Below, in pieces: positions 4,401 to 30,126 of a DNA stretch of 64,000 nucleotides (its first letter is position 1; the number at the start of each line of letters is the position of its first letter). The position numbers and the translations under genes were made by a program. This stretch comes from Minisyncoccota bacterium (GTDB lineage Bacteria; Patescibacteriota; Minisyncoccia; Phycocordibacterales; UBA6065), in assembly GCA_036400935.1 (NCBI GenBank), contig DASWWW010000002.1, positions 201,529 through 265,528 of the forward strand, in the 5' to 3' direction. Under the pieces are notes generated by a model. That model ran no database searches and was not told the DNA's origin. It saw only the letters and a list, made by a program, of their open reading frames with translations.

Positions 4401-5179
4401 TCAATGGTAACCTGGCCGTTCGCGCCGAAACCTCCCTGCCCTACGTCAGATCCGCCTCCGCCGCCTCCTGGGAATCCTCCGTTTGTTGCCCAAGGGCTGC
4501 CAAGGTGGCTACCCGGGCAAGCGCCGTCGTTTCCGCAGCGTCCGCGAGATCCGCCCTGTCCGCCGTTATACGCAGACCCTCCGTTAGAAGCGTAAGGGCC
4601 GCCATCGTACTCAGTGTATGGGGCGCCCGACTGGCCAGCTACGTTGATATCGCCGCCGTTAGCCTGTCCGCCAAAGCCCATGTCGCCGGTAGGATTGCCG
4701 TGACCCATGAAGCTCTGTCCGCCCTGTCCGCCGTTTGCAGTCATGGTTCCGAACGATCCGCTAAAGCTGCTGTCGCCTCCAGGATTGCCTACGCGACCGT
4801 CATAGTAGCTCATGATGCCCTGTCCTCCTGCGCCGATAGCTATTGAGAAAGAGTCGCCAGAGTTAACAGAGATAGTCTTCTCTGAATATCCTCCCGCGCC
4901 GCCTCCCTGACCGGATCGGTGAGATTCCTCGATCTTCTCGCCAGAGCCGCCGGCTGCGCCCGCGCCCCAAACCTTTACCTTGATAGATGTGACGTTAGAT
5001 GGAACAGTCCAGTTGTCCTGTCCAGGATTCGAATATGACCAAGTCTGGCCTACTGAAGCGCTGCCCTCGTCTGCCAAAGCAATGAACGGAGTAAGAGGCT
5101 GAATAATGAACGCAGAAACGAGCGCCATAGTGAGCGCTTTTCGAAGAATCGTTCGTTTATTTGGGTTTGCCTGGTTCAT
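1451..5179 (-). CDS. giant secreted Gly-rich surface protein with PKD/Ig-like repeats, C-terminal peptidoglycan-binding domain and TM helices
   Basis: 1242 aa; signal peptide (MNQANPNKRTILRKALTMALVSAFIIQPLTPFIALA); long G-rich tracts; repeated DWNN(D/N)G...Y/F modules; PG_binding_1-like segment (LQYFLNSYEGANLTVNGQFDDATEAAVKALQ); C-terminal hydrophobic helices. Confidence 0.75.
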   Translation of the reverse strand: MNQANPNKRTILRKALTMALVSAFIIQPLTPFIALADEGSASVGQTWSYSNPGQDNWTVPSNVTSIKVKVWGAGAAGGSGEKIEESHRSGQGGGAGGYSEKTISVNSGDSFSIAIGAGGQGIMSYYDGRVGNPGGDSSFSGSFGTMTANGGQGGQSFMGHGNPTGDMGFGGQANGGDINVAGQSGAPYTEYDGGPYASNGGSAYNGGQGGSRGRCGNDGACPGSHLGSPWATNGGFPGGGGGGSDVGQGGFGANGQVTIEVVSVVSVPQTPVSPIGFIDGASCDVITGWTYDPDNSSVSNGVHFYTDNNVLIGNTEADQPRQDVNDANGVSGNHGFSFPTPASLKDGQTHNIYAYGLNTNGAGENAILSGSPKQITGCTTDGGSGGPGPILNLPPHAPTVTPTSGSGAANVSHTFTANTTDPEGDNVDYGFDWNNDGNVDFYSGLVPSGTSAQMSYSWSAAGTYPVRVVVRDSNLNYSAETVVPFVVTSTGGGGGNTNTAPNLPNLLSAPLTGPINTPIQFSVVATDPQNDNISYGFDWNNNGQNIEYTALTMSGISAEISHSWPAAGTYTFSVRARDAQGAISAPISHTITISGTTGGNNNPPVANITSFYVNPTAITSGEMATLHWTSANATYCEASGDWSGAQATAGSFALGAQTASVTTNKFFTLSCGNANGTSTLSATLTINPTTGGGNGGNNNPSIGQFQITPNPIVSGNGATITWSSTNATLCVASGSWSGNLATSGSAPIAPITVSATTNYTYTLSCGNSNSTTTQNQILTVNPTTGGPGGPGNPTIDFTVSPQSGLITTESGNTASFAVALASAPTANVTLPINSSNWNEGTTSVSSLVFTPANWNLPQDVVVTGRDDGAVDGNVSYMITVGASASSQAAWNNLPAKTVSVTNTDNDTSNGGGNNGGGGSDGSGVVPPRGGGGGGNSGTCVGYGCTTGGGNGGSNNPDITIIFDNPTTSTGGGSTVSGPELVCPAVNFITVFMKKGIDNNPNEVRKLQYFLNSYEGANLTVNGQFDDATEAAVKALQAGHATEILAPWGVTEATGIVYITTARYINTTFCNDNPGYTGDQDVKDILDNNVPYVPVDNSGEFDGAIGQATSTPTNIAGAFGAFTQRVWDFLKDIPWYQILILLLLLIGTAFTVHGIFRKDIGSHDYFMSFIQGASALAVGSVLNVLNAMSFILNPDWFTDKAGFGLGWLLALGIVNLLAFVVICVAILLALYNRVTVKSTTRPL

Positions 5180-5270
5180 TGCTGAAGAATCCTTACATTC
5201 CTAACACTAAGCAAAGACGGAACAAAGTCAAAGAAAATGACAACACTTTGCACGATTGCTGTCAAAGCTC

Positions 5271-5372
5271 GCTCTAAAGGACATATAAAGGACATCTCAT
5301 TTAAACCTTATTCTGCAATGTCCTTTAGGAAATCATTGCCAATTCGCTACCGAATGAAACTTAAAGGACAGA
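5271..5372. promoter_or_regulatory. array of TAAAGGACAT direct/inverted repeats in divergent promoter region
   Basis: ctcTAAAGGACATaTAAAGGACATctc (two direct copies, 11-bp register), inverted copy caATGTCCTTTAgg, further half-site cttAAAGGACAga; 90-190 bp upstream of the giant surface protein start (5179) and of divergent gene 5484. Confidence 0.3.
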
Positions 5373-5483
5373 ATGGGAGGGATTGACGGATTTGAGTAAA
5401 ATTTGTGCCGTTTTTATTGAAAATATTACAATACTATTTTATATAATTGTCAAATAGCTATTGCTATACAAATAAAGCATGAT

Positions 5484-5999
5484 GTGATGTTTTTCGACCG
5501 TTTGACTGCGAATAAGAGAGCGGGCACAATATCTTTTCCGGAACAGTTCTTCAAAAACAGCCTTTTCTATCCGATGGCAAAAACCCGCACCGTAACTCCC
5601 TTCCCAACCAATCCATTCGTACTGCTCGTGCCCTACAAGCTCGAGCATCCGAACGGGTCCAAAGCCACGCTGCTGTCAGGAACCTTCATTTTCTGTGTAA
5701 ACGGGCCGGCAAAGCTCGACAGCATGGGCAGGACGCTCGTGACTTTCACAGCATACGGAAGCGCCGAGCAGCTCGAACTCACCAGAGAGCAGTTCGGCCC
5801 TCTTCCCTCGTACGTAGCTATCAGCCGCGAGTCCGGCAAATACATGAGCGGCGACGTATTTCAGGTCGTACCAAAAATGACGCACCCGAAAGGGCAGATA
5901 GTCGTCATCGATCCCGAAGTCGGGCATATAGCCCTGTCGCTCGATTCGGTCTATCCCGTCGACGGCCCGACGCACTCTCTCGCTCAATACGCTTCATAA
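5484..5999 (+). CDS. hypothetical protein
   Basis: 171-aa ORF followed directly by a strong rho-independent terminator; no recognisable motif. Confidence 0.5.
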   Translation: MMFFDRLTANKRAGTISFPEQFFKNSLFYPMAKTRTVTPFPTNPFVLLVPYKLEHPNGSKATLLSGTFIFCVNGPAKLDSMGRTLVTFTAYGSAEQLELTREQFGPLPSYVAISRESGKYMSGDVFQVVPKMTHPKGQIVVIDPEVGHIALSLDSVYPVDGPTHSLAQYAS

Positions 6000-6002
6000 A
6001 AC

Positions 6003-6035
6003 GCAAACGGCACCCTCGCAGGTGCCGTTTTTTAT
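6003..6035. terminator. bidirectional rho-independent terminator
   Basis: ggcaccctcgcaggtgcc hairpin followed by TTTTTT; sits between convergent genes 5484..5999(+) and 6038..7447(-). Confidence 0.6.
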
Positions 6036-6037
6036 CA

Positions 6038-7447
6038 CTATCCCCTCGGATCGAATATCGACGGATCGAGCTTCTCTCCTGCCACTATCTTTGAGATGCG
6101 CTCTGCGCCGAATACCGATGGCAGTATGCCTACGCCGTTGCAGCCCAGGTTATAGAGGAGGGCCTTGTTCTTTGGCTCCTCACCTACGACGCGCACGCCC
6201 GATGGCGTATACCCCATGAGGCCGTGCCAGGTGAACTGATAGTCGATCTTCTTGTTCGGGTCTGGATCATAGGTCGATTTCACGAATTCCTGGATGCGGC
6301 GCTTCTCCTCTTCCGGATAGTCGAGATCTGAATCGTATTCCACCCTCTTTTCAAGGGAAAATTCCGGACCACCCACGCTGATGAGGTTCGAATTCTCGTG
6401 GCCTTCGACCTCGAAAGGACGGCGCGTGAGGTAGAAATAGGGGTCTTCGGCGTACGGATCGCTCGAATTGGTGTTTGCCGGCTCGAAATAGCTGACGGCT
6501 ATCGGCGGCTTGTTCATCGGCTCGAGATATGCGGACATATAGCCGACCATTCCGCGAACCAGATGATGGAACTTGGTATCGATGGCAAGACCGCCTTCGT
6601 TGATAATGGTGAGCCCCTCGAAACCGTTGGTACACAGGACGACCCGCTCTGACGTTATCGTGTGCTTTCCGGCGTCCAAAATAGCCCTTTTGTCGTGCAT
6701 GGCCACCTTCTGTATAGAAGTGTGCTCGAAAAGGGTGAATCGTCCGGCAAATTCCTTGAGCAGGTATGCGGCGATCTCCTGGCAGAAGAGGGCCGAGTTA
6801 AGACAGCCCTTCTGGTATGAGAGCGCGGCCATATAATTGCGGTTATCGGTCTGAAGGCGCGACAGGACCTCGCTCTGAGGCACTACTTCGTAAAAATCCT
6901 TGTATTCGGCAGGGATACCAGCCAAAAATGGCGCGTTGTCGGCTATGCGCATCTCCTCATTGCGGAGGCCGGCCTTTCGCCTGCACACATTATCCTTGAG
7001 GTGACGCACGACCTGGTCGTAGGTCGAAAATCCGGCATGGCCCATAAAGCGCGCCAGAGGGATAGAAAGCCCGGCCTCGGTAAACATGCGATCGATGAGG
7101 CTCCATGCGCCCTCGATCGATTTCTGGGCTTCAGCGGCCTTTTCTAGGCCAAATTCGTCGGCTAGCTCGTAAAACGGCCTCTCGAAATAGCTGGCGATCT
7201 GGCCTGCATTATGGCCGGTAGCACCATGGGCGAGCTTGCCCTTCTCAACTACGACGACCTTCTTGTCCGTATTCTTGAGCAAGAAAAAAGCCGTCGATAT
7301 GCCGGCGATACCCGCTCCGACAATGACGACGTCCGTCTCTATGTCTCCCGGCAAAGTGACGGTCGGCCGGTCCTGATTCATCTGATAAATCCATGGTGAT
7401 CGGTATTTCATGGACTGATTATAATTTAGTCCTTCCAATTCCACCAC
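6038..7447 (-). CDS. FAD-dependent oxidoreductase (DAO/amine-oxidase-like)
   Basis: 469 aa; dinucleotide-binding motif VVIVGAGIAGISTAF near N-terminus followed by VVVVEKG...HGATGHNAG; start may be an internal Met (MKYRSPW or MNQDRP). Confidence 0.75.
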   Translation of the reverse strand: MVELEGLNYNQSMKYRSPWIYQMNQDRPTVTLPGDIETDVVIVGAGIAGISTAFFLLKNTDKKVVVVEKGKLAHGATGHNAGQIASYFERPFYELADEFGLEKAAEAQKSIEGAWSLIDRMFTEAGLSIPLARFMGHAGFSTYDQVVRHLKDNVCRRKAGLRNEEMRIADNAPFLAGIPAEYKDFYEVVPQSEVLSRLQTDNRNYMAALSYQKGCLNSALFCQEIAAYLLKEFAGRFTLFEHTSIQKVAMHDKRAILDAGKHTITSERVVLCTNGFEGLTIINEGGLAIDTKFHHLVRGMVGYMSAYLEPMNKPPIAVSYFEPANTNSSDPYAEDPYFYLTRRPFEVEGHENSNLISVGGPEFSLEKRVEYDSDLDYPEEEKRRIQEFVKSTYDPDPNKKIDYQFTWHGLMGYTPSGVRVVGEEPKNKALLYNLGCNGVGILPSVFGAERISKIVAGEKLDPSIFDPRG

Positions 7448-17495: not shown

Positions 17496-17534
17496 ATAAA
17501 TTATATTATCACAATCGTCAGCACACTTAATACG

Positions 17535-20333
17535 CTACCACTCGAATTTCTCAACAATCCCCTCAATAGCGCTCTTTATGCGGGTAACGATACCTCTTCG
17601 CTCAAGTATCCTTGGTTGCTCTGGAAGCAGATCAGCAACATCCTGTTCTCGAGGCAGCTTCTGGGTATAGAGGTAATCACCAATCAATCCTTCGATCTTA
17701 TCCACTGGAATCTTCTCATCGTGCGCCAATTGCTTTAGCACTTCAGATCGCTTACTCTGCCAGAATTCGCCGAATGCCTTTTCTACGTCGTCTGCCTTGT
17801 GGAGCTTGGGCAAGCTCTCTTCGATGAACTTCTTGACCAAGTCCTTCTTCTTGCGAAGTTGCATATCCCTATCAAAGATGTGCAACACCTCTTCAGTCTT
17901 TTTCTTTCGCACGGAGTCAGAGGTGATGTTCTTCAGTCCGGCAATAAGCAGGATGATGTAATCGAAATTAACGATGTCTCGGAGAGTTAGCTCAAGCTCG
18001 AAATCAATCTGGTCGAGGATAGACTCAGCGCCAGCATCCTTATTCCTACGCTCCTCATAGACGTCCAAGTACTTGCTCTGGTAGTCATAAAATTCCTGCT
18101 CGGTAATACCAACATCCTCAAACGAGAATTCAGCAAACGTCTCAAGTGATGACTTAATACGCAACAGGTCACGGAACGTCTTGATGAAGCCAGCTTTTTC
18201 TTCTTCGCTCTGTAATGCATCGATTGAAGCCAGTGTAGGAACTTTTTCCTTAAGCTCGTTCAGCTTGGCAGTAAACTCCTTCTTCTGATCCTCATAAGGC
18301 TTCTTGAATACTATTTCCTTTGCATTCTCATCACCGAATAGCGCCAACGCTGTGTCGGTAGCTTTCTTTAAGTTACGGAACGAGACGATATTGCCATGGG
18401 GCTTGTCCGAATTGAGAAGTCTGTTTGTTCGTGAGTACGCCTGAATAAGACCGTGGTAGCGGAGGTTCTTATCCACGTACAAGGTATTGAGTCGTGGGCT
18501 ATCAAAACCAGTAAGGAAGATGTTTACAACGATAACCAGATCAACCTCCTTGTTCTTAATGCGCTTCTGCAAATCTCGGTAGTAATCGTAAAAGCGATCC
18601 GTTGAGAAGTTTGTTGCATAAAGCTCGTTGTAATCCTTGATGCAGTCTTCTAGGAAATCGCGGGAGTGCTGATTGCCGGTCGTACCTTCGCCAGCAAAGA
18701 TATCGATATCGAGCATGTCGTTGCTCTCTTCCTCGTTTGCCTGATAGGTGAAGATGGTCGCTATCTTAAAGTCACTCGCTTTCTTGTTCTTGAATAGTGC
18801 GTAGTAGCGCTTAAGTACTTCAATGTTTGATACAGCAAAGAAGGCATTAAATTTGCCTGACTTCGTTTTACGCTTCCAGTCAGCAAGGATGTAGTCGGTA
18901 ATTTTATTCAAACGATCATCGCTTTCGAGTACCTCGCGCTTACCTACACCCTCGACAAGAGCTTCTGCGAAAATATCCGCATCCAGTGTGTCTGGCGACT
19001 TCTGTGTGTACTTGCCGACATACTCAACCGCAAAGCCGAGAACATTATTATCAGAAATAGCGTTCGTGATGATGTATTTGTGGAGACATGAGTCAAAGAC
19101 GTCTGCGGTAGTTACGCCGCCCACGTTGTTGTCAGCGAAGATGGGTGTACCAGTAAAACCAAAGAGCTGTGCCTTGTTGAAAAAGCCTTTAATGCGAGCG
19201 TGTGTCTGTCCAAACTGGCTGCGGTGACATTCGTCAAAGATGATCACCACCTTCTCGTCGGTGAGGTATGCAAACTTGCTGGAGTGGTTCTCGCGACCAA
19301 TGGCAATATCGAGCTTCTGAATGGTGGTGACGATGAGCTTTCGGTTTGTGTCAGCAAGCTGGGCTACTAGATTGCGAGTGCTGTCTGTGCCGTCCACAGA
19401 GCCGTCAGAGAAGGAGTTAAATTCCTTTGTGGTCTGGATATCGAGATCCTTTCGATCTACGACAAAAAGCACCTTCTTGACTTCAGCCATGCGGGACAGT
19501 ATCTGACTTGCCTTGAATGAGGTCAGGGTCTTTCCCGAACCAGTAGTGTGCCAGATATAACCGTTCTTGTCTGACTCTTTCACGCGCCCCTCAATAGTTT
19601 TTACAGCGTAGTACTGGTATGGGCGCAGCACCATCGGGATCTGTAGCGACTCAGCCAAGACGATGTATTCGGCGATCATCTTTGACACGGCGCATTTTTC
19701 CAAGAACGCATTCGCAAAGTCTTCAAGCTGAGTGATCTTGGTGTTGTTCTCATCAGTCCAATAGAAGGTCTGCTCAAAAGACTGGCGTGGATTGTTTGAG
19801 AAGTATTTTGTATTTACTCCATTTGAAATAACGAAGATCTGGATGTATTCAAAAAGTGTTCCAGTGAATGAATGCTTGTGGTAGCGCTGGATCTGGTTAA
19901 ACGCCTCTTTCATTTCCATACCACGACGCTTCAACTCAACTTGCACGAGAGGCAGACCGTTTATGAGAAGCGTCACGTCATAGCGGTTCTCATACCGGCC
20001 GGACTGTGTCAGCTGGTGAGTAACCTGATATTCGTTCTTGCACCACTGCTCCATATTGAAAAAGCGCACGTAGAAAGTACTTTCGTCGTCTCGTGCTAGG
20101 GCGTAGCGATCTCGGAGTGTTTTTGCCTTTTGGAACCGATCTCCTTTGTTGAGGTGGTTTAGAATGCGAGAAAACTCCTTCTCAGAAAAGGTGGTGCTAT
20201 TAAACTTCTCAAGCTGAGTCTGAAGGTTCTTAATCAGTGCGTTAGTGTCAGCCAAAACAACTGGTTCAAAACCCAGCCCTCCAAGCTGTTCTAGAAGCTC
20301 TTTTTCAAGTTGTTGTTCTGATTGATGGGTCAT
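17535..20333 (-). CDS. hsdR: type I restriction enzyme R subunit (HsdR)
   Basis: Track ORF 17535..20366; likely start ATG 20333 (MTHQSEQ) overlapping hsdS stop (ATGA). SF2 helicase motifs (TGSGKT, DECH-like FDECHRS), HsdR_N domain; AT-rich relative to flanks. Confidence 0.85.
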   Translation of the reverse strand: MTHQSEQQLEKELLEQLGGLGFEPVVLADTNALIKNLQTQLEKFNSTTFSEKEFSRILNHLNKGDRFQKAKTLRDRYALARDDESTFYVRFFNMEQWCKNEYQVTHQLTQSGRYENRYDVTLLINGLPLVQVELKRRGMEMKEAFNQIQRYHKHSFTGTLFEYIQIFVISNGVNTKYFSNNPRQSFEQTFYWTDENNTKITQLEDFANAFLEKCAVSKMIAEYIVLAESLQIPMVLRPYQYYAVKTIEGRVKESDKNGYIWHTTGSGKTLTSFKASQILSRMAEVKKVLFVVDRKDLDIQTTKEFNSFSDGSVDGTDSTRNLVAQLADTNRKLIVTTIQKLDIAIGRENHSSKFAYLTDEKVVIIFDECHRSQFGQTHARIKGFFNKAQLFGFTGTPIFADNNVGGVTTADVFDSCLHKYIITNAISDNNVLGFAVEYVGKYTQKSPDTLDADIFAEALVEGVGKREVLESDDRLNKITDYILADWKRKTKSGKFNAFFAVSNIEVLKRYYALFKNKKASDFKIATIFTYQANEEESNDMLDIDIFAGEGTTGNQHSRDFLEDCIKDYNELYATNFSTDRFYDYYRDLQKRIKNKEVDLVIVVNIFLTGFDSPRLNTLYVDKNLRYHGLIQAYSRTNRLLNSDKPHGNIVSFRNLKKATDTALALFGDENAKEIVFKKPYEDQKKEFTAKLNELKEKVPTLASIDALQSEEEKAGFIKTFRDLLRIKSSLETFAEFSFEDVGITEQEFYDYQSKYLDVYEERRNKDAGAESILDQIDFELELTLRDIVNFDYIILLIAGLKNITSDSVRKKKTEEVLHIFDRDMQLRKKKDLVKKFIEESLPKLHKADDVEKAFGEFWQSKRSEVLKQLAHDEKIPVDKIEGLIGDYLYTQKLPREQDVADLLPEQPRILERRGIVTRIKSAIEGIVEKFEW

Positions 20334-21559
20334 ATAAATAATTTTTGTAGCAAACCTCTTTTCCAAGTTTCTACTTTTCTAATTTGCAATTCTTTTGACT
20401 CGATCATTGCGTCGAGGGAAACGAGAAAATCTGCAATTTTGTTCTGCTCCTGTATGGAAGGAAGTTGCACTTTGGCTTCAGAAAAATATTTAAAACTTAT
20501 CATTTTTCCATCTCTTATGCCTTCAAGTTTGCTAATTAATCTTCCAATGTAAGCAGGGCTCTTAAAAAGGAATTTAAAGAAGTACGTATTTACATCGATT
20601 TTTGACCTTAGAACGATATAGGCTGGGCTGCACAACCCATCATATTCGGAGTATTCTATGCCTCCCTGAAACGATCTCAGGCTAATTATAAAATCTCCCT
20701 TTCTAACAACTTTATAGCCAGCAATGCCTTTTTCTGAAACTTGAACTTTGTAATTTATCAAGTAACGAGGGACTGCACCCTGATCCTGTGTTATGGCCAA
20801 AATTGGTAAATCCTTTTGTGGGTTCTTATTAGATATATTTTCAAACACTTCGTCACCATTTACCACAGACCATTCGGGAAATTCTTTTCCGTTGTCATCT
20901 TGAAAGCGGATTTTTTGAGAAAAAATTTTCTGTACCACATCTTTTTTGTAGTTTTCTAACGAGGTTTTCTCCTTCTTCAATAGAGAAAGGTATTCAATAA
21001 CCACGTCCAAAAAGGAGCTGATCTTTCTCTGTTCATCTATTGCTGGAACATAGATCTTATCTTGCAGTACATGAGCGTTATTAATCTTCATGTCATTCTT
21101 CGCACCCTTTTTAACTAGCGGTCGAAGGTACCGATTTGTGTTGCTATCCAGAGAAAAATAGTAATCAAGAAAGCTACCATGCGCTTGATTCTCTATCACA
21201 CCGTAGACGGCGTAGAGCGTTGAAACTATTCCCGTTTTACCTTTATTTACCTTTATTACTCCATAAGGATTAGCCTTTAATGGGCTTTTTGTATAAACAA
21301 TGTCCCCCGTATCTACAACATGGTAGTTATGTACCGATTTTCCAGCATAAGAGCGACCTAAATGCTCAACCTGATTGACAACACCCACGTCACCCGAAAC
21401 TGAGAGTACATCGTCTTTGGTGTACTTAAGGTCACCATTGCGCTTCTTGGACTCCTTTAGTAATTCACTTAATTTCGTATTTTTCCAACCATCAGTAAAT
21501 TCACCGAAACGTAATTCGGGTACTTTTATTTTTTGTTCTTTTGAAATGATGGCAGGCAT
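20330..21559 (-). CDS. hsdS: type I restriction-modification specificity subunit (HsdS)
   Basis: 409 aa with two TRD-like halves separated by conserved coiled regions; between hsdM and hsdR. Confidence 0.8.
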   Translation of the reverse strand: MPAIISKEQKIKVPELRFGEFTDGWKNTKLSELLKESKKRNGDLKYTKDDVLSVSGDVGVVNQVEHLGRSYAGKSVHNYHVVDTGDIVYTKSPLKANPYGVIKVNKGKTGIVSTLYAVYGVIENQAHGSFLDYYFSLDSNTNRYLRPLVKKGAKNDMKINNAHVLQDKIYVPAIDEQRKISSFLDVVIEYLSLLKKEKTSLENYKKDVVQKIFSQKIRFQDDNGKEFPEWSVVNGDEVFENISNKNPQKDLPILAITQDQGAVPRYLINYKVQVSEKGIAGYKVVRKGDFIISLRSFQGGIEYSEYDGLCSPAYIVLRSKIDVNTYFFKFLFKSPAYIGRLISKLEGIRDGKMISFKYFSEAKVQLPSIQEQNKIADFLVSLDAMIESKELQIRKVETWKRGLLQKLFI

Positions 21560-21562
21560 GGC

Positions 21563-23140
21563 TTAGAAAGGTTTATCTATCTTCAGTTCATCACAAAACT
21601 CAGCAATTCTATTCTGCAAGTTAACTTCCACTTTTCTCATTTCCTTTAATTCCGAAGCGATCAAACCTATATCAATATTTTCTACTTCTTCAAAAGTATC
21701 AACATATCTTGGAATATTGAGGTTATATTCATTAGACTTTATTTCTTCGAGAGTGGCTCGATGGGAGTAGCGTTCAATTTCTTGTCTATTTTTGTATGTA
21801 TCAAAAATCTTTGAAATATTTGCATCACTTAAAACATTTTGACTCTTTCCCTTTATGAAATCCGATGACGCATCAATAAACAAAACATCATCGTCATCCT
21901 TACGACACTTCTTTAAGACCAAAATCATTGTAGGAATACCCGTGCCGTAAAATAAATCGGGTGGTAAACCTATAACAGCATCAAGGTAGTTTTGTTTTTC
22001 AATTATATATTGTCTTATCTGAGCCTCAGCGCCCGATCGGAACAAGGCGCCATGCGGTAATACAATCGCCATTGTCCCGTTATCAGCAAGGTGATAGAGC
22101 ATATGGGTAACAAAGGCATAATCTGCTGCACCTTTTGGAGCTAGTCTTCCATACTGAGAAAATCTATCGTCATGTACCAGTTGAGGGTCAGTATCACCCT
22201 TCCACTTCGCTGAAAAGGGCGGATTAGCCACCACAGCCTCGGCTTTGAGTTCTGGCAGTAGATCTTCAGTAAGAGTGTCTCCGTTTTTTATCTTAAAGTG
22301 GTCAAAGTGAACTCCGTGCAAAATCATATTCATACGACCAAGATTGTAGGTCGTGGGGTTGAGTTCCTGTCCAAAATAGCTAGTTACTTCGACATAGTCT
22401 TTAAGTCGAAGCAACAGAGATCCGGAACCACAAGTGGGGTCGTAAACGGTTTTGATACGTTTCTTTCCAACGGAAACTATTTGAGCTAGCAGGCGCGATA
22501 CCTGCGCTGGGGTGTAAAATTCGCCACCTTTCTTACCGGCTCCTGCAGCAAATTCGCCGATAAGATATTCGTAAGCGTCACCAAGCAGATCACTCTTTGA
22601 GTCTTCGAGTTTGAAATCAATGCCGTTAAGGTGCGCTAAGACTTCAACAATAACCGCATTCTTTTTCTGTTCGGTTGAACCGAGTTTAGAAGAAGTAAGG
22701 TCTACATCATCGAAAAGTCCCTTGAAGTCGTCCTCACTAGCAGTACCCATAGAGGTCTGCTCGATGGAGTTGAGTATGTTTTTAAGATCCTCCAAAATAA
22801 ACGACTCTTCTCCTTGGACGTTTCCTTTCCCCTTATTTACGAGATAAGAAAATAGTTGTGTCGGTTTAAGGAAGAAGCCAAGATGGTCAATACAACTTTC
22901 TCTAATATGCTCGATATATTCTTTACCTTCTTTTGATTTTTCTTTTATCTCAGCAAAACTAAAATCCTCTCTAGCCAGCAACTTTTCGTCTACATAGCGT
23001 TCCAGCTTTTCAGACAAGTATTTATAGAAAATAAAGCCGAGAATATAGTTCTTATATTCATCCGCGTTCATCTTGCCGCGTAGCACATTTGCTACCGCCC
23101 ACAATTGTTTTTCGAGTAATCGCTTTTGTTCGTCAGACAT
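21563..23140 (-). CDS. hsdM: type I restriction-modification N6-adenine DNA methyltransferase (HsdM)
   Basis: 525 aa; HsdM_N domain, AdoMet motif (DPTCGSGSLL) and catalytic NPPF (VVANPPFSAKW). Confidence 0.85.
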   Translation of the reverse strand: MSDEQKRLLEKQLWAVANVLRGKMNADEYKNYILGFIFYKYLSEKLERYVDEKLLAREDFSFAEIKEKSKEGKEYIEHIRESCIDHLGFFLKPTQLFSYLVNKGKGNVQGEESFILEDLKNILNSIEQTSMGTASEDDFKGLFDDVDLTSSKLGSTEQKKNAVIVEVLAHLNGIDFKLEDSKSDLLGDAYEYLIGEFAAGAGKKGGEFYTPAQVSRLLAQIVSVGKKRIKTVYDPTCGSGSLLLRLKDYVEVTSYFGQELNPTTYNLGRMNMILHGVHFDHFKIKNGDTLTEDLLPELKAEAVVANPPFSAKWKGDTDPQLVHDDRFSQYGRLAPKGAADYAFVTHMLYHLADNGTMAIVLPHGALFRSGAEAQIRQYIIEKQNYLDAVIGLPPDLFYGTGIPTMILVLKKCRKDDDDVLFIDASSDFIKGKSQNVLSDANISKIFDTYKNRQEIERYSHRATLEEIKSNEYNLNIPRYVDTFEEVENIDIGLIASELKEMRKVEVNLQNRIAEFCDELKIDKPF

Positions 23141-23141
23141 A

Positions 23142-23324
23142 TTATTTGGTGCTTGCCCGCTTAAGGAAGGCGTCGAACTCAGCCTTGTCTATTCTAAATT
23201 CCTTACCAATCTTATATGCCTTCAATTTACCCGCTTTGATATAGCGATAGATGGTCATTATGTTAACGCCCAATTTCTCCGCAAGATCCTGCGCTGTATA
23301 AAATTCCTTACCAGACATAGGCAA
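23142..23324 (-). CDS. helix-turn-helix DNA-binding protein (excisionase/MerR-like)
   Basis: 60 aa; YTAQDLAEKLGVNIMTIYRYIKAGKLKAYKIG; 1-nt spacer to hsdM start. Confidence 0.7.
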   Translation of the reverse strand: MPMSGKEFYTAQDLAEKLGVNIMTIYRYIKAGKLKAYKIGKEFRIDKAEFDAFLKRASTK

Positions 23325-23415
23325 AGTATACTTTACAATTCTTTACACAGCAAACGGAGTGTTGCCGACCTGTGGATACAAGCCCTTTCCAAGTTTGCCG
23401 TTATTTTGCCGTTTT

Positions 23416-23913
23416 TTATTCAGCCTTTCGGTAGATCTTCTTGCCGTCGAAGATAACCTCTTCAACTTTCCAAGCACCCATATCGTCTACGTCACCACCA
23501 GTAAAAATCATGATCGTACTCCAGTTGGAACGGATCATCGCACCATAGCTATTTTGACTATCTACACACGACACCACCTTCCATCGGTTATCTCCAAGAT
23601 CAGTTGCTATGCTAGAGCAAAAATCTGCGGTCGATGGCGACTCAAGAAGTTTCTCAATATAGAACTCGGAGAACGACCTAGCAGATAGTTCGTAACTATA
23701 TGCTGATGGTGGTTCTGGCACTCGAGGACTCGACGGAACTATTGCTGCCGTAAAGATGCTAGTAAAAATTCCTATGCCGAATAGTACAAATACTACTTTT
23801 ATTATTGGCGACATAGGCTGCGGCAATTTGCTTCCGCAATGCGAACACTTCTTTGCCTTAGGGTCTACTTCTGCCAGACACTGAGGACATTTCTTCGTTG
23901 GGGTTTTATCCAT
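23416..23913 (-). CDS. zinc-ribbon membrane protein (hypothetical)
   Basis: 165 aa; N-terminal CPQC...CSHC zinc ribbon, one TM helix, C-terminal extracytoplasmic domain. Confidence 0.5.
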   Translation of the reverse strand: MDKTPTKKCPQCLAEVDPKAKKCSHCGSKLPQPMSPIIKVVFVLFGIGIFTSIFTAAIVPSSPRVPEPPSAYSYELSARSFSEFYIEKLLESPSTADFCSSIATDLGDNRWKVVSCVDSQNSYGAMIRSNWSTIMIFTGGDVDDMGAWKVEEVIFDGKKIYRKAE

Positions 23914-24098
23914 AAATAATTAGCCAGCTAATAAGGCTGGCGTGGGGTTCAGTGTCTTCGTTGGGGTTTCCCGACCATATCCTTTGGAAAACAAAGGGGT
24001 TAGGTCGCTGGTCTTTCGGCCAGATATTCAATTGTGGCAACAGTGACAAAAACCACTGCTGTAGTCCTATTTTAGCTTAAAAGAAGGCTTTTGATAAG

Positions 24099-26810
24099 TT
24101 ACGGAGCGAGTCTTGACGATAGAAGCCCCACATCTTCAGTACTATCGACTTTTTGGAAACTAGCCAAGACTTTCTTTTCGGCTTCAGGCGTCCAATATAT
24201 TTTTAAGTTTTCTTTAGCTCTGGTTATAGCTGTATAGAAAATGTTATGTGTAATCATTTCTTCAGTCTCGCTCGTAATTACGATTTTCACCGAGCCATAC
24301 TCTAGGCCTTGAGCCTTGTGGATTGATACAGCATAAGCAACCTGAAATGGAACCACCGAGTCGAGTGGTTCGTCGTCTTCATCAGAGTCGCCTTGATCAT
24401 TAACTATAAAGCGCACTATCGAATTTCCGCTTTCTGCATTTCCAACCAGCTCAAAATCATAGCCCGATGCCTGCAGTTCGTTTATGGCCTTATCGATCTC
24501 AATATCAAATTGGATCTGATGTTCAGACTTATCTATGGCGACAATTCGACCCTTCAAGTTGTTATAGATTATGGGCGCGAACCTCTCCGTCTCGTTAAAC
24601 AAAATCGGATCACCAACTTTATAGGTCTGTATACCCCAATCAACTGCTGGACTGTTGTTGTTGCTCTGTAGGAATTTGTTGAGGTTATTTATGCCGTACA
24701 AACCATCGTAGTTTAAACAGAGAATTATTTCGTCATCTTTAAGATCTCCAAAAATAGACTCATTTAAAACAGTGGTGTACCCATTCCTCGTCATGATTTC
24801 CAAGATGTTGTCCTTAAGGTTTCTGACTCTGTTCCAAAATTCAATCAACTCTTCGTTAGTAGTTCTATAAGGGACTGTGAGTTCAGATACCGCAGTCTTT
24901 GGTACGAAGTATCGAGCGACGTTAAACCAGTTTCCAAATATTATTGACTCAATCTGGAATACATCACCCACCAGTATGAGAGTCTTAAATTTTGCCTTAT
25001 TCAGCACATCGATCATGTCAGTGTTACTCACCGTACTGCACTCATCGATAACAAGGAGGTCATAGTCAGTGTCAGTATTCCTGTCCGACAGAAATTTCGT
25101 AATAGTTTGGAACGTACAGTTAGCCGCAGTTACTTTTCTTTTCAGGTTATCAACCGCCGGATTAGTATTCGCTAAATAGAGCTTGTTGTTGTCGTTAAAG
25201 AAATTCGATATGTGGTTTATGAGCGTAGATTTTCCTGTTCCAGCAGCACCGTATATCAAAGCCACTTCGGAGTCAGCAAACAGTTGTCTCAAGATCCTTT
25301 CCTTGTCCTCGCAGTCGATCTGATAGGCGGTCGATTTTAGCCATGAGTCTACAGAGTTTGAGTAGTTGCTTATGCCACCACATGAAAGCTCCTTGAGCCT
25401 CTTGATGATATCTAAGGTGTCTTTCTCATAACCATTTATGTAAATAAAATCCTTAAAGTTCTCCAACTTGCGATGATTGTGCTTGGGAAGATACAGCTCA
25501 CCATTGTAGGTCGTCATCAATGACTCAACCTCTTCTTTAGTTTTAGATAAATCGCTCAGGGGCGTATACAGTTTTCCTTTGTTTTCAGTATTGTTCCTTA
25601 TCAATCTTGCAAAAAGTTCATGCTTTCGATCAGTGGCATCAATACACTCGAAAACATCCGATATCTTCGGATTGTGTCCTATCAACGAGGAATTGAAGGG
25701 CATCTTATCGAACGGCTTACAGCCAAGGTTGAAATTTAAATCATTTCGAAGTTTATAGCCGTTATAGCGGCAACGCTGCATTTTTATAATCCTATTGTTC
25801 AAGGAACGAAGTAGGTATCTCACTACATTTGTACCGACTTCGTTGTTTTTGATCAGAGATTTTGCTTTATCCAAGACAGGTAGAAAATTCACCGCCTGTA
25901 CACCTTGGATAATACGGATTTTTGCGGCGTCATAGTACTCATCTGAGAGATCGATAAGTTCAACAAGACTCAAATCAGTCTCTGTTAAGAAACTCATCAG
26001 GTTTTTATACTCGGCATGTGTTGTTTGAATATTTATGTCCTCATCTAAAATACGAGCAAAGTTGTTAAGCTCGCAAGGTCGTATTGAAACCTCCCATTTA
26101 TCAATAATTTGAATGGGCATTTTTTTGCCCAAGACCTCAATGTCGTCGTGGATTATCGAAAACTTAACAGCGTAATTGTCTGAAATATCTAGCTTGGTAA
26201 AAGCGATGACACGATCAAACTTACCAACCCTTGCACTCGCAATTGTAAAAGTGACTTCGTAATATATCTCGTGGTTAACAAAAAATGGCTTGATCTTCTG
26301 GATGTAGTACCGATCCTTGTAAGAACTTACTTTTCTTGCCTTTGTTGGGTGTTCGATCTGCTCAACTATCTTTGCGTAATATTCCTGCAACGCAGGGTCG
26401 GTATTGATAGGAAATTTATCAATATTACCTAAAACCTCTAGACCATAGGTGTGCTTCAGGCGCGATTTGATCCTGAGCAGATACTCGTAATACTTCAGCA
26501 TCAAACGTTCAGAATTTTCTTCGCTTTGCGTATAGTGCGAAGCAACACCTTGCAGAAAGTTGTGAAATCTTCTCAAAAACCCCAGCTTCCCACTCGGCTG
26601 CAATTTATTTGGGGCATTTATTAATCCATCCGGTGTAATCTCAACATCTTGGCCGTTAGCTCCTTCTTTTAGGGCTATATGCTCAACAAAGTTTCTGAGC
26701 TGGGAGAGAATGTTCTGCGACAAAAGACCTCTTTCAGAGGCATGGAATTTATCGATATTTTTACAGATGGCTGTATTGATAGTAAGTATCGCATCGTCGA
26801 TCTTGCTCAT
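24099..26810 (-). CDS. SF1 RecD/TraA-like DNA helicase with ~490-aa uncharacterised N-terminal region
   Basis: 903 aa; Walker A LIYGAAGTGKSTL (~res 500), Walker B LLVIDECS, C-terminal UvrD_C_2-like motif VSIHKAQGLEYGSVKIV...FYTAITRAKENLKIY; N-terminal half has no recognisable motif; very AT-rich. Confidence 0.75.
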   Translation of the reverse strand: MSKIDDAILTINTAICKNIDKFHASERGLLSQNILSQLRNFVEHIALKEGANGQDVEITPDGLINAPNKLQPSGKLGFLRRFHNFLQGVASHYTQSEENSERLMLKYYEYLLRIKSRLKHTYGLEVLGNIDKFPINTDPALQEYYAKIVEQIEHPTKARKVSSYKDRYYIQKIKPFFVNHEIYYEVTFTIASARVGKFDRVIAFTKLDISDNYAVKFSIIHDDIEVLGKKMPIQIIDKWEVSIRPCELNNFARILDEDINIQTTHAEYKNLMSFLTETDLSLVELIDLSDEYYDAAKIRIIQGVQAVNFLPVLDKAKSLIKNNEVGTNVVRYLLRSLNNRIIKMQRCRYNGYKLRNDLNFNLGCKPFDKMPFNSSLIGHNPKISDVFECIDATDRKHELFARLIRNNTENKGKLYTPLSDLSKTKEEVESLMTTYNGELYLPKHNHRKLENFKDFIYINGYEKDTLDIIKRLKELSCGGISNYSNSVDSWLKSTAYQIDCEDKERILRQLFADSEVALIYGAAGTGKSTLINHISNFFNDNNKLYLANTNPAVDNLKRKVTAANCTFQTITKFLSDRNTDTDYDLLVIDECSTVSNTDMIDVLNKAKFKTLILVGDVFQIESIIFGNWFNVARYFVPKTAVSELTVPYRTTNEELIEFWNRVRNLKDNILEIMTRNGYTTVLNESIFGDLKDDEIILCLNYDGLYGINNLNKFLQSNNNSPAVDWGIQTYKVGDPILFNETERFAPIIYNNLKGRIVAIDKSEHQIQFDIEIDKAINELQASGYDFELVGNAESGNSIVRFIVNDQGDSDEDDEPLDSVVPFQVAYAVSIHKAQGLEYGSVKIVITSETEEMITHNIFYTAITRAKENLKIYWTPEAEKKVLASFQKVDSTEDVGLLSSRLAP

Positions 26811-27010
26811 ACTTTACAATTATATACATTTTCCCTCTAAAAGCAGAGGGAGGCGCTTATTAACGAGAAAGCGCGATCAGGCCGTTGATCGTATTGAAAT
26901 GGTACTGCGCATCGGGGTAAATAGTAGACCATTCGTAGGTTCGAAATGCGTCCCTCCATGCGAGCTATCTCACTCGCAGAATTCCGAATCTATAATCACC
27001 GAAGAAGCAG

Positions 27011-27436
27011 TCAGTAGTTATCAGTCAAACAGCGCAAAATCCTCCCCAAGACCCTCTCCGGCCTCTTCTTCAAATCATGCTCCCAGATGCGCACGACTTT
27101 CCAGCCCATGCGGCGCAGGGCCCTGTTGTTGCGGATATCGCGGCGCATATTGGCCTGAATCTTTGGCAGCCAGTACTTTTTGGACAGCTTGCTCTGCCCT
27201 TTCCGGAGCTTGTACCCATGCCAGAAATCGCCGTCGACGAACACGGCCAGGCGCCTCTGTACGAAAACAATGTCGGGACTGCCGGGAATCTTGCGATAGT
27301 GCAGACGGTACCTGTAGCCGAGCGGATAGAGCGCCGCGCTGACGAGCTTGCGCAGGGCGATCTCGGGCTTCGTATTCTTGGACCGGATCGCGGCCATGAC
27401 CAGGCTGCGCTTTTCCTTTGTAAAAATGTCGACCAT
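27011..27436 (-). CDS. vsr: very short patch repair endonuclease (Vsr)
   Basis: 141 aa; KPEIALRKLVSAALYPLGYRYRLH...PDIVFVQRRLAVFVDGDFWHG...VVRIWEHD typical Vsr motifs. Confidence 0.8.
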   Translation of the reverse strand: MVDIFTKEKRSLVMAAIRSKNTKPEIALRKLVSAALYPLGYRYRLHYRKIPGSPDIVFVQRRLAVFVDGDFWHGYKLRKGQSKLSKKYWLPKIQANMRRDIRNNRALRRMGWKVVRIWEHDLKKRPERVLGRILRCLTDNY

Positions 27437-29105: not shown

Positions 29106-29546
29106 TCAGGCTTTGGGGAAACCCACCGATCCAGGATGAGAATCCTGGTGATGATCGCAGAGCTCGAGCAATGCCTCGAGCTTTTGCTTTACAGAAACAA
29201 ATTGACCGCCCTCAAGAGCTCCCACTCTTCTTTGAAACCTATTCGAGGAGAACATCCTTACCTGATACAAAAGAGCATACCGAAGTTCGCCGTTAACCAA
29301 AATCTCAGAAAACCACGACCCATCCTTTCTCTGAGTTGAAATAGGAATACCCACGTAACTCGATCGTGACAGTTTCCTCAACACTAAAACCGGCCGATTA
29401 AACGTGCCCCCTTTACCACATGATTCGTTCCCGATATTTATACCGACGGAACACCACCAAATTTCCCCTTCTTTAAAGAAGACCTCGATCGACTTGCTCT
29501 CAATTGCCTTCTTCTGCTCGTTCCATGCATCAAAATTCTTTTCCAT
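29106..29546 (-). CDS. PemK/MazF-like toxin-fold protein (solo)
   Basis: 146 aa; GEIWWCSVG...GNESCGKGGTFNRPVLVL...YVGIPISTQ matches MazF/PemK family signature; no small antitoxin ORF evident upstream. Confidence 0.5.
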   Translation of the reverse strand: MEKNFDAWNEQKKAIESKSIEVFFKEGEIWWCSVGINIGNESCGKGGTFNRPVLVLRKLSRSSYVGIPISTQRKDGSWFSEILVNGELRYALLYQVRMFSSNRFQRRVGALEGGQFVSVKQKLEALLELCDHHQDSHPGSVGFPKA

Positions 29547-29589: not shown

Positions 29590-29612
29590 AGAGCCGTTGG
29601 CTCTCTAGGACT
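29590..29612 (-). terminator. rho-independent terminator
   Basis: agagagccgttggctctct hairpin, on minus strand followed by TTTTTTAT; overlaps stop of 29605..30126. Confidence 0.45.
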
Positions 29613-30126
29613 TCTTTGATTTCTTCCGCTTCTTGATCTGCTCAACAAGCATTTCAAACAGCCTTGAAGCGATCGGATTCGGATATTTCTCCAGATGCGC
29701 GCAGAGGGCGTCATTGGGGATCATGCCGAGGTTGTGGGCAGTGAGAAGCATCGCCGCTTCCGACGCGTAGAACGAGACTCCGGCGAAGGTCAGCACGTAG
29801 CCGTCCACAAGAACCGAAGCAGCCGGATGCCTCATGCGCACTTCCTGGCTCATATAGCCGCTGCGGGCAACGAGATTCCCGTCCTGCAGTGCTCTTGCCA
29901 GGTCGCGAACGGCGTCCATCTGAGAAGACTTGCCGAGAATAGATGCGGTTATGAGATATTCCCGCCTTGCGCAGTGCAGAGCGAAGTATCCGCCAATCTC
30001 CTTTGGGGCCGAAGGGCAAAAGGCGACCGCGGCCTTGACCGCGCTGGCCACGACGTAGATATCTTCAGGACGAAAAGGAAACTTCTCGCGAGACGCTTTC
30101 CTGCAATTACCATTGCTGGTTTTCAT
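29605..30126 (-). CDS. hypothetical protein
   Basis: 173-aa ORF flanked by terminators; no motif recognised; basic C-terminal tail KKRKKSKKS. Confidence 0.45.
   Translation of the reverse strand: MKTSNGNCRKASREKFPFRPEDIYVVASAVKAAVAFCPSAPKEIGGYFALHCARREYLITASILGKSSQMDAVRDLARALQDGNLVARSGYMSQEVRMRHPAASVLVDGYVLTFAGVSFYASEAAMLLTAHNLGMIPNDALCAHLEKYPNPIASRLFEMLVEQIKKRKKSKKS

Follow-up and report, generated by a model that had tools for sequence, protein, structure and literature searches.

What does a large helicase do beside a type I restriction-modification (RM) operon in a patescibacterial genome? This question is raised by a 64,000-nucleotide stretch of DNA, hereafter the window, from a Minisyncoccota bacterium (assembly GCA_036400935.1, contig DASWWW010000002.1, positions 201,529 to 265,528 of the forward strand). 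The gene in question is located at 24099..26810 of the window on the minus strand, with its stop codon at 24099-24101, and encodes a protein of 903 amino acids that matches the PADLOC model of the PDC-S53 family. The open reading frame (ORF), reported in a first-pass annotation of the same DNA, is intact and starts with ATG. We propose that the gene product is a self-contained, horizontally mobile protein of the PDC-S53 family directed against phages or other mobile genetic elements, a proposal for which we regard the chances as evenly divided. That the family serves defence or exclusion in some form is probable. Window coordinates given below refer to the minus strand unless stated otherwise.

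The PDC-S53 family and its helicase motor

The protein belongs to an already catalogued family and is not a new kind of system. It matches the PADLOC model PDLC05035 (PDC-S53) end to end (E=0, 1309.9 bits, residues 1-900 against profile positions 1-893 of 900). The model derives from the work of Payne, Hughes, Fineran and Jackson (bioRxiv 10.1101/2024.01.29.577857), in which 145 'phage defence candidates' (PDC) made up of one or more genes were predicted in 2024 from their embedding in RM, BREX and DISARM loci. Known defence, mobility and housekeeping families were discarded in that screen, and the candidates were named without testing (10.1101/2024.01.29.577857). The novelty claimed by the first-pass annotation is therefore lost, since the same inference of guilt by RM association was published in 2024 and is built into PADLOC as PDC-S53. 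Its description of the protein as a candidate defence protein stands, in line with the full-length family match and with homologues that adjoin type I RM and other defence genes. PDC-S53 is not mentioned in the main texts of the literature searched; studies testing other PDCs left it out, and DefensePredictor explicitly excluded PDCs as unvalidated. Like the founding members of PDC-S53, the window protein is associated with type I RM genes; its gene is adjacent to and upstream of the hsd operon rather than inserted among the hsd genes. The catalogue entry gives the prediction only and describes neither domains nor mechanism. The new content here consists of a domain map, candidate active-site residues and a swap involving DUF4365, all of it computational.

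A word-indexed search returned more than 4000 homologues, the best 120 of which are all about 900 residues long and 60-100% identical to the window protein. These homologues, together with the 921 cluster representatives matched by the N-terminus (see below), identify the ORF as a real gene. An identical protein (P0001), labelled Candidatus Paceibacterota, is present on seven public contigs. With one genome counted per species, the family is found in at least 420 species of more than 12 phyla. Its carriers include Patescibacteria, Gammaproteobacteria, Bacillota, Bacteroidota, Campylobacterota, Elusimicrobia, Synergistaceae, Verrucomicrobia, Petrotogaceae, Melainabacteria, Mycoplasmataceae and one Nanoarchaeota metagenome-assembled genome (MAG). 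Identity across phyla amounts to 50-60%, which points to frequent horizontal transfer. The architecture of the family is invariant, and the N-terminus is never found without the helicase. The family is very common in MAGs of Patescibacteria, a group whose immune systems have been little studied, and it also extends into DPANN archaea.

The C-terminal ~510 residues (392-903, 24102..25637) form an intact motor of superfamily 1B (SF1B), RecD/Dda type, as documented by matches to Pfam, NCBIfam and the Protein Data Bank (PDB) structures of RecD2 and RecD. Residues 502-875 are covered by the Pfam families Viral_helicase1, AAA_30, AAA_19 and UvrD_C_2, in agreement with the AAA_30/UvrD_C_2 RecD-type core that had been placed in the C-terminal part, and no Pfam family matches before residue 502. 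The SF1B motifs are all intact, namely Walker A, Walker B, motif III (LVGDxxQ), motif V (SIHKAQGLE) and motif VI (YTAITRA). Walker A (LIYGAAGTGKSTL, residues 518-530) contains K527 and is mapped to 25224-25250, and Walker B (LLVIDECS, residues 585-592) contains D589 and E590 and is mapped to 25035-25058. The motif V region VSIHKAQGLEYGSVKIV begins at residue 828 and the motif VI region AITRAKENLKIY at residue 861, the two being located at 24198-24329. Every motif quoted in the first-pass annotation was found in the translation, at the residues given above. Translocation along single-stranded DNA (ssDNA) in the 5'-3' direction and unwinding are predicted for the helicase from its family membership.

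By sequence, the nearest solved relatives are RecD2 (3e1s) and RecD (1w36_D). The alignment with the NCBIfam RecD2 model begins at residue 392 and remains below the cutoff (TIGR01448, 130.6 bits against 500), and the same holds for the RecD model (TIGR01447, 103.4 bits against 310), so that the protein is a member of neither equivalog. Judged from these scores, the helicase represents a family related to, yet distinct from, the RecD2 and RecD equivalogs, and NCBIfam release 20 contains no model specific to it. PHROG 325, named 'Dda-like helicase', matches the N- and C-terminal halves alike. The window protein shares the motor family and all motifs with RecD2, RecD and Dda, whereas those enzymes lack its 390-residue N-terminal module, and the genomic context of the present family is accessory or mobile and not that of recBCD or replication genes.

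Two families of large helicases invite comparison. Conjugative relaxase-helicases (TraA/MobF/TraI) are defined by an N-terminal relaxase domain, whereas the N-terminus of the window protein has no relaxase (HUH/TrwC) match in Pfam or fold searches, and no Rep or origin-binding domain. The TraA-type relaxase-helicase model TIGR02768 reaches 54 bits against a cutoff of 590, with only the P-loop region (residues 494-630) aligned. The first-pass annotation held that a defence role would fall if the N-terminus matched a domain of a housekeeping helicase such as a relaxase, or if homologues were never associated with defence; the N-terminus carries no relaxase or housekeeping domain, and the homologues are often defence-associated. 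It also likened the architecture to Nhi-like nuclease-helicases. Both are single large SF1-helicase proteins, anti-phage in the case of Nhi and predicted to be so in the window. The helicase of Nhi is of the Upf1/DNA2 type, whereas the core observed here is of the RecD/Dda type; no Nhi model is among the PADLOC matches at E≤0.01, and Pfam and fold searches give no nuclease domain, which leaves the parallel unsupported. In accordance with the earlier failure to find a PD-(D/E)xK or HNH signature, no such domain is present in the protein.

The N-terminal module and its candidate effector site

The N-terminal half of the window protein, ~390 residues ahead of the helicase, has no Pfam match at E≤10. 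The N-termini of 17 divergent and 10 longer relatives likewise show no Pfam match at E≤10 and no domain fusions. A profile of the N-terminus searched against all PDB sequences gave nothing credible, with two chance-like matches at E values of 0.08 and 1.3. In an exhaustive search, residues 1-495 alone match 921 representatives of 50%-identity clusters, nearly all of which are ~900-residue proteins or fragments, indicating that the module occurs only on this helicase. The earlier statement that the N-terminus has no recognisable motif thus holds for sequence families and not for structure models, which give a HEPN-like bundle and an OB fold.

The AlphaFold2 model of residues 1-500 has a predicted local distance difference test (pLDDT) score of 84.2 and a predicted TM-score (pTM) of 0.80, and is composed of four parts. 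Helices at 3-21, 32-50, 60-69, 77-88, 97-122 and 139-153 are followed by a five-stranded sheet at 167-242, by short helices at 245-345 and by a conserved, mostly coil stretch that continues to about residue 390. Residues 1-153 (26352..26810) are modelled as a six-helix bundle with HEPN-like topology and residues 160-245 (26076..26333) as an OB fold, whereas residues 246-391 (25638..26075) constitute an orphan helical/coil region. A Foldseek comparison of the N-terminal model with the PDB gave no match at E≤1e-3, the top match being Dna2 with poor scores. The best local matches are SSB-type OB folds (probability 0.95-0.99), so the OB fold at residues 160-245 is well supported in the model, and it probably binds ssDNA. 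When residues 1-160 are modelled alone (pLDDT 83.6), the HEPN matches fall on the bundle, with scores of 8.1 for Csx1, 7.5 for SO_3166, 6.7 for Csm6 and 6.2 for AbiA. Equal scores are obtained with the vinculin tail, the Qbeta A2 protein and designed bundles, which leaves the ranking ambiguous; a HEPN fold of residues 1-153 is therefore plausible and not discriminated from other helical bundles. The orphan region has no fold or sequence match in the fold searches, Pfam or the PDB profile search. Conserved blocks are found at IRPCE (243-247), GxN (326-328), Q345, PFDxMP (366-371) and HNP (379-381).

Conservation was counted over 95 divergent full-length members. R39 is conserved in 94 of them, H92 and Y107 in 93 each, S91 in 88, E43 in 85 (with D in seven more), R102 in 78 and Q87 in 66, and H44 in only 32. 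The segment R39-N-F-V-E43-H44 is located in helix 2 (26679..26696), and S91-H92 in the loop after the helix 77-87 (26535..26540). The HEPN layout includes a conserved acidic residue in helix 2, and some HEPN families retain the histidine and lack the arginine (PMC3710099). Mapped onto this layout, E43 would occupy the helix-2 acidic position, H92 the canonical HEPN histidine position and Q87 the canonical arginine position, while the near-invariant R39 precedes E43 by one turn. The literal R39NFVEH44 ('RNxxxH') of helix 2 was rejected as a catalytic motif, since the poor conservation of H44 means that R39-N-x3-H44 is not a family-wide Rx4-6H motif.

The arrangement R39-x3-E43...H92 has the composition of the PrrC triad R320/E324/H356, for which mutagenesis and chemical rescue point to a role in catalysis (PMC1484252); the likeness is compositional only and implies no structural equivalence. 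As in PrrC and RloC, an NTPase is combined with a HEPN-type bundle (here predicted), and linkage to hsd genes is recurrent. The window protein differs from them in having an SF1B helicase in place of the ABC ATPase, a reversed domain order and an additional OB fold. The PrrC model of PADLOC gives no match at E≤0.01, and most members of the family are not RM-linked. Recurrent fusions between HEPN domains and SF-I helicases have been described in RM contexts (Anantharaman et al. 2013, PMC3710099), and the window protein resembles these fusions in general architecture and genomic association, whereas its bundle has no match to a HEPN Pfam family and no Rx4-6H motif.

A subfamily that has lost exactly the candidate catalytic residues provides a natural control. 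Four IMG/VR proteins of ~1100 residues (loci L153, 7428-10736; L156, 1-3297; L157, 2845-6150; L159, 1409-4714) carry ~135 extra N-terminal residues ahead of the position corresponding to residue 1 of the window protein. One of them matches Pfam DUF4365 (E=1.9e-4, 21.9 bits against a cutoff of 24.3). A search with the added N-terminus returned 207 clusters; many among the 120 listed bear a precomputed PF14280 (DUF4365) match, and 66 of these 120 listed matches contain the motif D-G-T-x-E...Q-x-K. In SPARDA, a short-Argonaute defence system, DUF4365 (also termed DREN) acts as the collateral nuclease domain (PMC10810196, PMC12205087). The ~1100-residue subfamily thus fuses DUF4365 to the helicase scaffold, whereas the window protein has no DUF4365.

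In this subfamily, R39 is an arginine in 0 of 38 and E43 a glutamate in 0 of 38 sequences, with pairwise identity down to 44%, and H92 is replaced by arginine in 36 of 36. R244, E247, Q345, H379, N380 and E398 are also replaced in the four full-length DUF4365 members, in which G326, F367 and P371 are unchanged, and R102, Y107, E185, K197, R200 and Y213 are retained in the subfamily. The loss of near-invariant polar residues exactly where a defence nuclease was added is expected if the effector site of the standard protein is built from them. The swap suggests that the N-terminal module acts as the effector of a single-protein sensor-motor-effector system. Many database entries of the DUF4365 subfamily are only 200-500 residues long even on long contigs and may be split genes or gene-calling artefacts.

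On the basis of these observations, we propose that the OB fold and the 5'-3' motor would load onto ssDNA or 5' tails arising from replicating or recombining invader DNA. ATP-driven engagement would then license a candidate N-terminal effector site around R39, E43 and H92, which probably also includes R244, E247, Q345, H379 and E398. The activity of this site would most likely be that of a metal-independent RNase of the HEPN/PrrC type, leading to growth arrest or abortive infection. A more specific form of the proposal, in which the N-terminal module is a derived HEPN-type ribonuclease not described before, with its arginine relocated to helix 2 as in PrrC and is gated by the OB fold and the SF1B motor, is tentative and on the doubtful side. 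Under the same derived-HEPN reading, and no less tentatively, the protein would by itself constitute an abortive-infection system, with an effector slot that a SPARDA-type DUF4365 nuclease can occupy instead. If correct, a helicase-gated RNase would join the single-gene defence repertoire, and the family would illustrate effector-domain exchange on a helicase scaffold. The map of bundle, OB fold, orphan region and motor, together with the candidate residues, offers a testable anatomy for PDC-S53; were the protein to prove inert against phages, it would serve as a caution about guilt-by-embedding predictions.

Genomic settings of the family and their bearing on function

The surroundings of the gene were compared by calling and clustering ORFs in 76 independent cellular loci, across which no neighbour is conserved. 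Type I RM genes are present in 15 of the 76 loci, on the same strand as the helicase in 12, and in several of these the RM genes end within 40 bp of the helicase start. ParB-methylase fusions were found in seven of the 76 loci and Dcm in six. When 142 ORFs located up to 2.5 kb from the helicase were scanned with PADLOC, matches to mad3, AriA, LmuB, PDC-S07, SoFic, GajA and PtuA were obtained, as well as to type II methylases and type I restriction endonucleases. ORFs farther away (≥6.5 kb) still matched many RM models; the near and far sets both lie inside defence islands, and the counts are of models rather than of proteins, so the control is not a clean one. In Gracilibacillus, the helicase is located between a type IIG RM, a Lamassu-like trio and McrBC. 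Neighbourhood conservation, which the first-pass annotation put forward as a check, yields no fixed partner in the cellular loci, yet RM and defence genes recur beside the homologues. In Avibacterium gallinarum (L075, ~4499-7210), hsdR pieces of 97 and 1065 residues flank the helicase, which is on the strand opposite to them; the gene is either genuinely embedded there or was inserted and thereby split hsdR.

Recurrent recombinases raise another explanation, namely that the protein is a housekeeping helicase for the replication, recombination or transfer of serine-recombinase islands, prophages and plasmids, and that its proximity to defence genes reflects both riding on the same elements. Large serine or tyrosine recombinases are present in 20 of the 76 loci. 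The locus of a 94%-identical homologue (L160, 8001-13275) is a minimal islet consisting of the helicase, a 169-residue ORF and a large serine recombinase, and a 91%-identical homologue (L162, 3803-12469) has an HTH_17 gene and a type III RM beside it and a serine recombinase close by; each of the two islands is bounded by a large serine recombinase. The Clostridium beijerinckii copy is cargo of an integrase/Rep/DnaC/Bro element, and the helicase core resembles those of TraA/MobF and Dda. However, 45 of the 76 loci contain neither a recombinase nor type I RM genes. Deposited phages and plasmids rarely carry full-length copies, the counts being 2 in 50,697 and about 5 in 72,556 records, respectively. 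The phage copies are outside the replication module, on the strand opposite to it, in phages that have a primase/helicase of their own. The lack of a relaxase, Rep or origin-binding domain further argues against such a role, and a SPARDA-type collateral nuclease in one subfamily is hard to reconcile with it. We consider this explanation improbable.

The family is also found in 67 IMG/VR loci. Prophage copies are usually located near the prophage end, and the 3' end of the helicase is within 4 kb of a contig end in 28 of 59 full-length IMG/VR cases, whereas this applies to the 5' side in only four. In most prophage copies, the helicase is part of a co-oriented cassette, in which a gene for a protein of 280-315 residues, here called c1, precedes the helicase, and a Cro/CI-type helix-turn-helix (HTH) gene of ~70 codons follows. 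Antirepressor and D5/VapE primase genes are oriented divergently from the cassette, and Dcm and serine-recombinase genes are close to it, surroundings that identify a prophage immunity region. The cassette was found in IMG/VR loci (within L102-L154) and in two GenBank phages (L085, 6146-10013; L087, 6146-10009), on at least four phage backbones. Terrisporobacter phage TPDSL_ph1 and Erysipelothrix phage phi1605 show this arrangement, which in the latter is followed by a type IIS RM. The phage homologue also matches the PDC-S53 model.

The c1 protein matches LmuA in PADLOC (E=4e-15) and HamA weakly, and has no Pfam and no PDB match. Its conserved residues are C-terminal, with no nuclease motif seen. 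A relationship between c1 and the helicase N-terminus was rejected (hhalign probability 0.1). The pairing is reminiscent of Hachiman and Lamassu, in which HamB is an SF2 helicase and LmuB an SMC-like ATPase, in contrast to the SF1B motor of the window protein, which has no c1 beside it. Indeed, c1 is absent from all 76 cellular loci; there the family conforms to the single-gene definition of PDC-S53, the prophage lineage being the exception.

Several points weigh against a self-contained protein with its own N-terminal RNase. The canonical Rx4-6H at the end of HEPN helix 3 is not conserved, the family having Q87-x4-H92 instead, and no sequence similarity was found to PrrC in PADLOC or, in a Pfam search with 18 members at E≤10, to any HEPN family. 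The alignments used for the AlphaFold2 models are shallow, all rows sharing at least 56% identity with the query. A single evolutionary event probably accounts for the effector swap, and for this reason the swap is suggestive rather than conclusive. The prophage pairing with c1 indicates that the helicase may need an effector supplied in trans. Concerning defence itself, the enrichment of defence genes near the helicase was assessed without a proper genomic background, and no experimental test of any PDC-S53 member was found in the literature.

Part of this evidence would also fit a non-catalytic N-terminus with the same defence role, a nucleic-acid-binding or regulatory module on a helicase that works alone or with effectors in trans. 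The helicase would then strip or unwind phage replication and recombination intermediates or deplete ATP on invader DNA, or else rely on host nucleases, the neighbouring RM enzyme or, in prophages, c1. Besides the missing Rx4-6H and the conserved upstream partner with its LmuA and HamA matches, this explanation is favoured by the proposal that HEPN domains without the motif are non-catalytic RNA binders (PMC3710099), and by fold matches of the OB-plus-bundle unit to MCM-N and RecO, which are DNA-binding modules. On the other hand, near-invariance of R, E and H is uncommon in a module that is purely a scaffold, and these residues are lost exactly upon the gain of DUF4365. The cellular loci offer no conserved partner, and c1 itself shows no nuclease motif and is conserved in its C-terminal part. 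Moreover, we know of no validated helicase-only defence protein. Taken together, a non-catalytic N-terminus appears rather unlikely.

The low-GC island in the window

The helicase gene resides in a low-GC island of ~9.4 kb (17500..26950, both strands), which is evident from the GC profile (0.42 against 0.55-0.56 in the flanks). The background GC of the window, ~0.55, is high for Patescibacteria/Paceibacterota. The N-terminal half of the gene had been described as extremely AT-rich; this is not borne out, its GC content being 0.397 compared with 0.409 in the C-terminal half, and the whole island is low in GC. The island contains, all on the minus strand, the helicase, a zinc-ribbon gene, an HTH_17 gene, hsdM, hsdS and hsdR. 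The type I RM operon (17535..23140), assigned from Pfam and gene calls, is composed of hsdM (21563-23140), hsdS (20330-21559) and hsdR (17535-20366, starting at 20333 in the public gene call). It is preceded by the HTH_17 gene (excisionase/MerR-type, 58 residues, 23142..23318), and the HTH_17-methylase arrangement recurs next to the 91%-identical homologue. The defence island of the first-pass annotation consists, in the window, of this one type I RM operon. Searches for a tRNA gene, an integrase or flanking repeats at the island ends were negative, and the island has no recombinase, unlike those of the 94%- and 91%-identical relatives.

The zinc-ribbon gene (23416..23913) encodes a protein of 165 residues with a Pfam Zn_Ribbon match and one predicted membrane helix; it was discarded as a conserved partner, being found only in copies of the same locus. 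A terminator-like hairpin (23923..23941) lies 3' of the helicase stop codon. At the 5' side, repeat analysis revealed the element TGTATATAATTGTAAAGTAT (26809..26828), which ends in the helicase start codon. A -10-like TATAAT is located 8 nt upstream of the ATG and there is no Shine-Dalgarno sequence, features which suggest that the helicase mRNA is probably leaderless. The gene looks monocistronic. An 18/20-nt copy of the 5' element is present at 23328-23347, ahead of the HTH_17-hsdM unit. The shared 18/20-nt element, (T/A)A(T/G)AATTGTAAAGTAT, found at 26809-26828 and 23328-23347, may be a promoter or operator through which the helicase and the type I RM are regulated together.

Such an arrangement brings to mind PrrC, and with it the possibility that the protein is an obligate latent partner of the type I RM next to it. 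HsdMSR would keep the protein inactive and release it when a phage anti-restriction protein disables the RM. The co-orientation and adjacency to the hsd genes in the window, the short distances to RM genes in several other loci, the acquisition of the island as one low-GC block, the shared 5' element and the PrrC precedent with its triad all fit this explanation. However, in 61 of the 76 cellular loci type I RM genes are lacking at distances up to 10 kb, and the closest relatives (77-94% identical) lie beside other genes or other RM types. The helicase gene also has its own promoter-like element and terminator-like hairpin. We therefore consider an obligate partnership highly improbable. In the proposal put forward at the outset, with its evenly divided chances, the helicase gene would have been acquired along with the type I RM operon, or beside it, on the 9.4-kb island.

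Outside the island, a gene for a very-short-patch repair endonuclease (vsr) is found immediately upstream, at 27011-27436. Its GC content of 0.57 is native, which places it beyond the island boundary, and it was dismissed as a partner of the helicase on account of this composition and of its failure to recur at other loci. No Dcm methylase is among the annotated neighbours in the window (~15.8-29 kb). Further upstream, a gene for a PemK/MazF-type toxin of 146 residues (29106-29546), with no recognisable antitoxin noted beside it, adjoins an unannotated ORF of 173 residues (29605-30126). Weak similarity links the C-terminal part of the vsr product to the endonuclease ends of Hhe and ProA.

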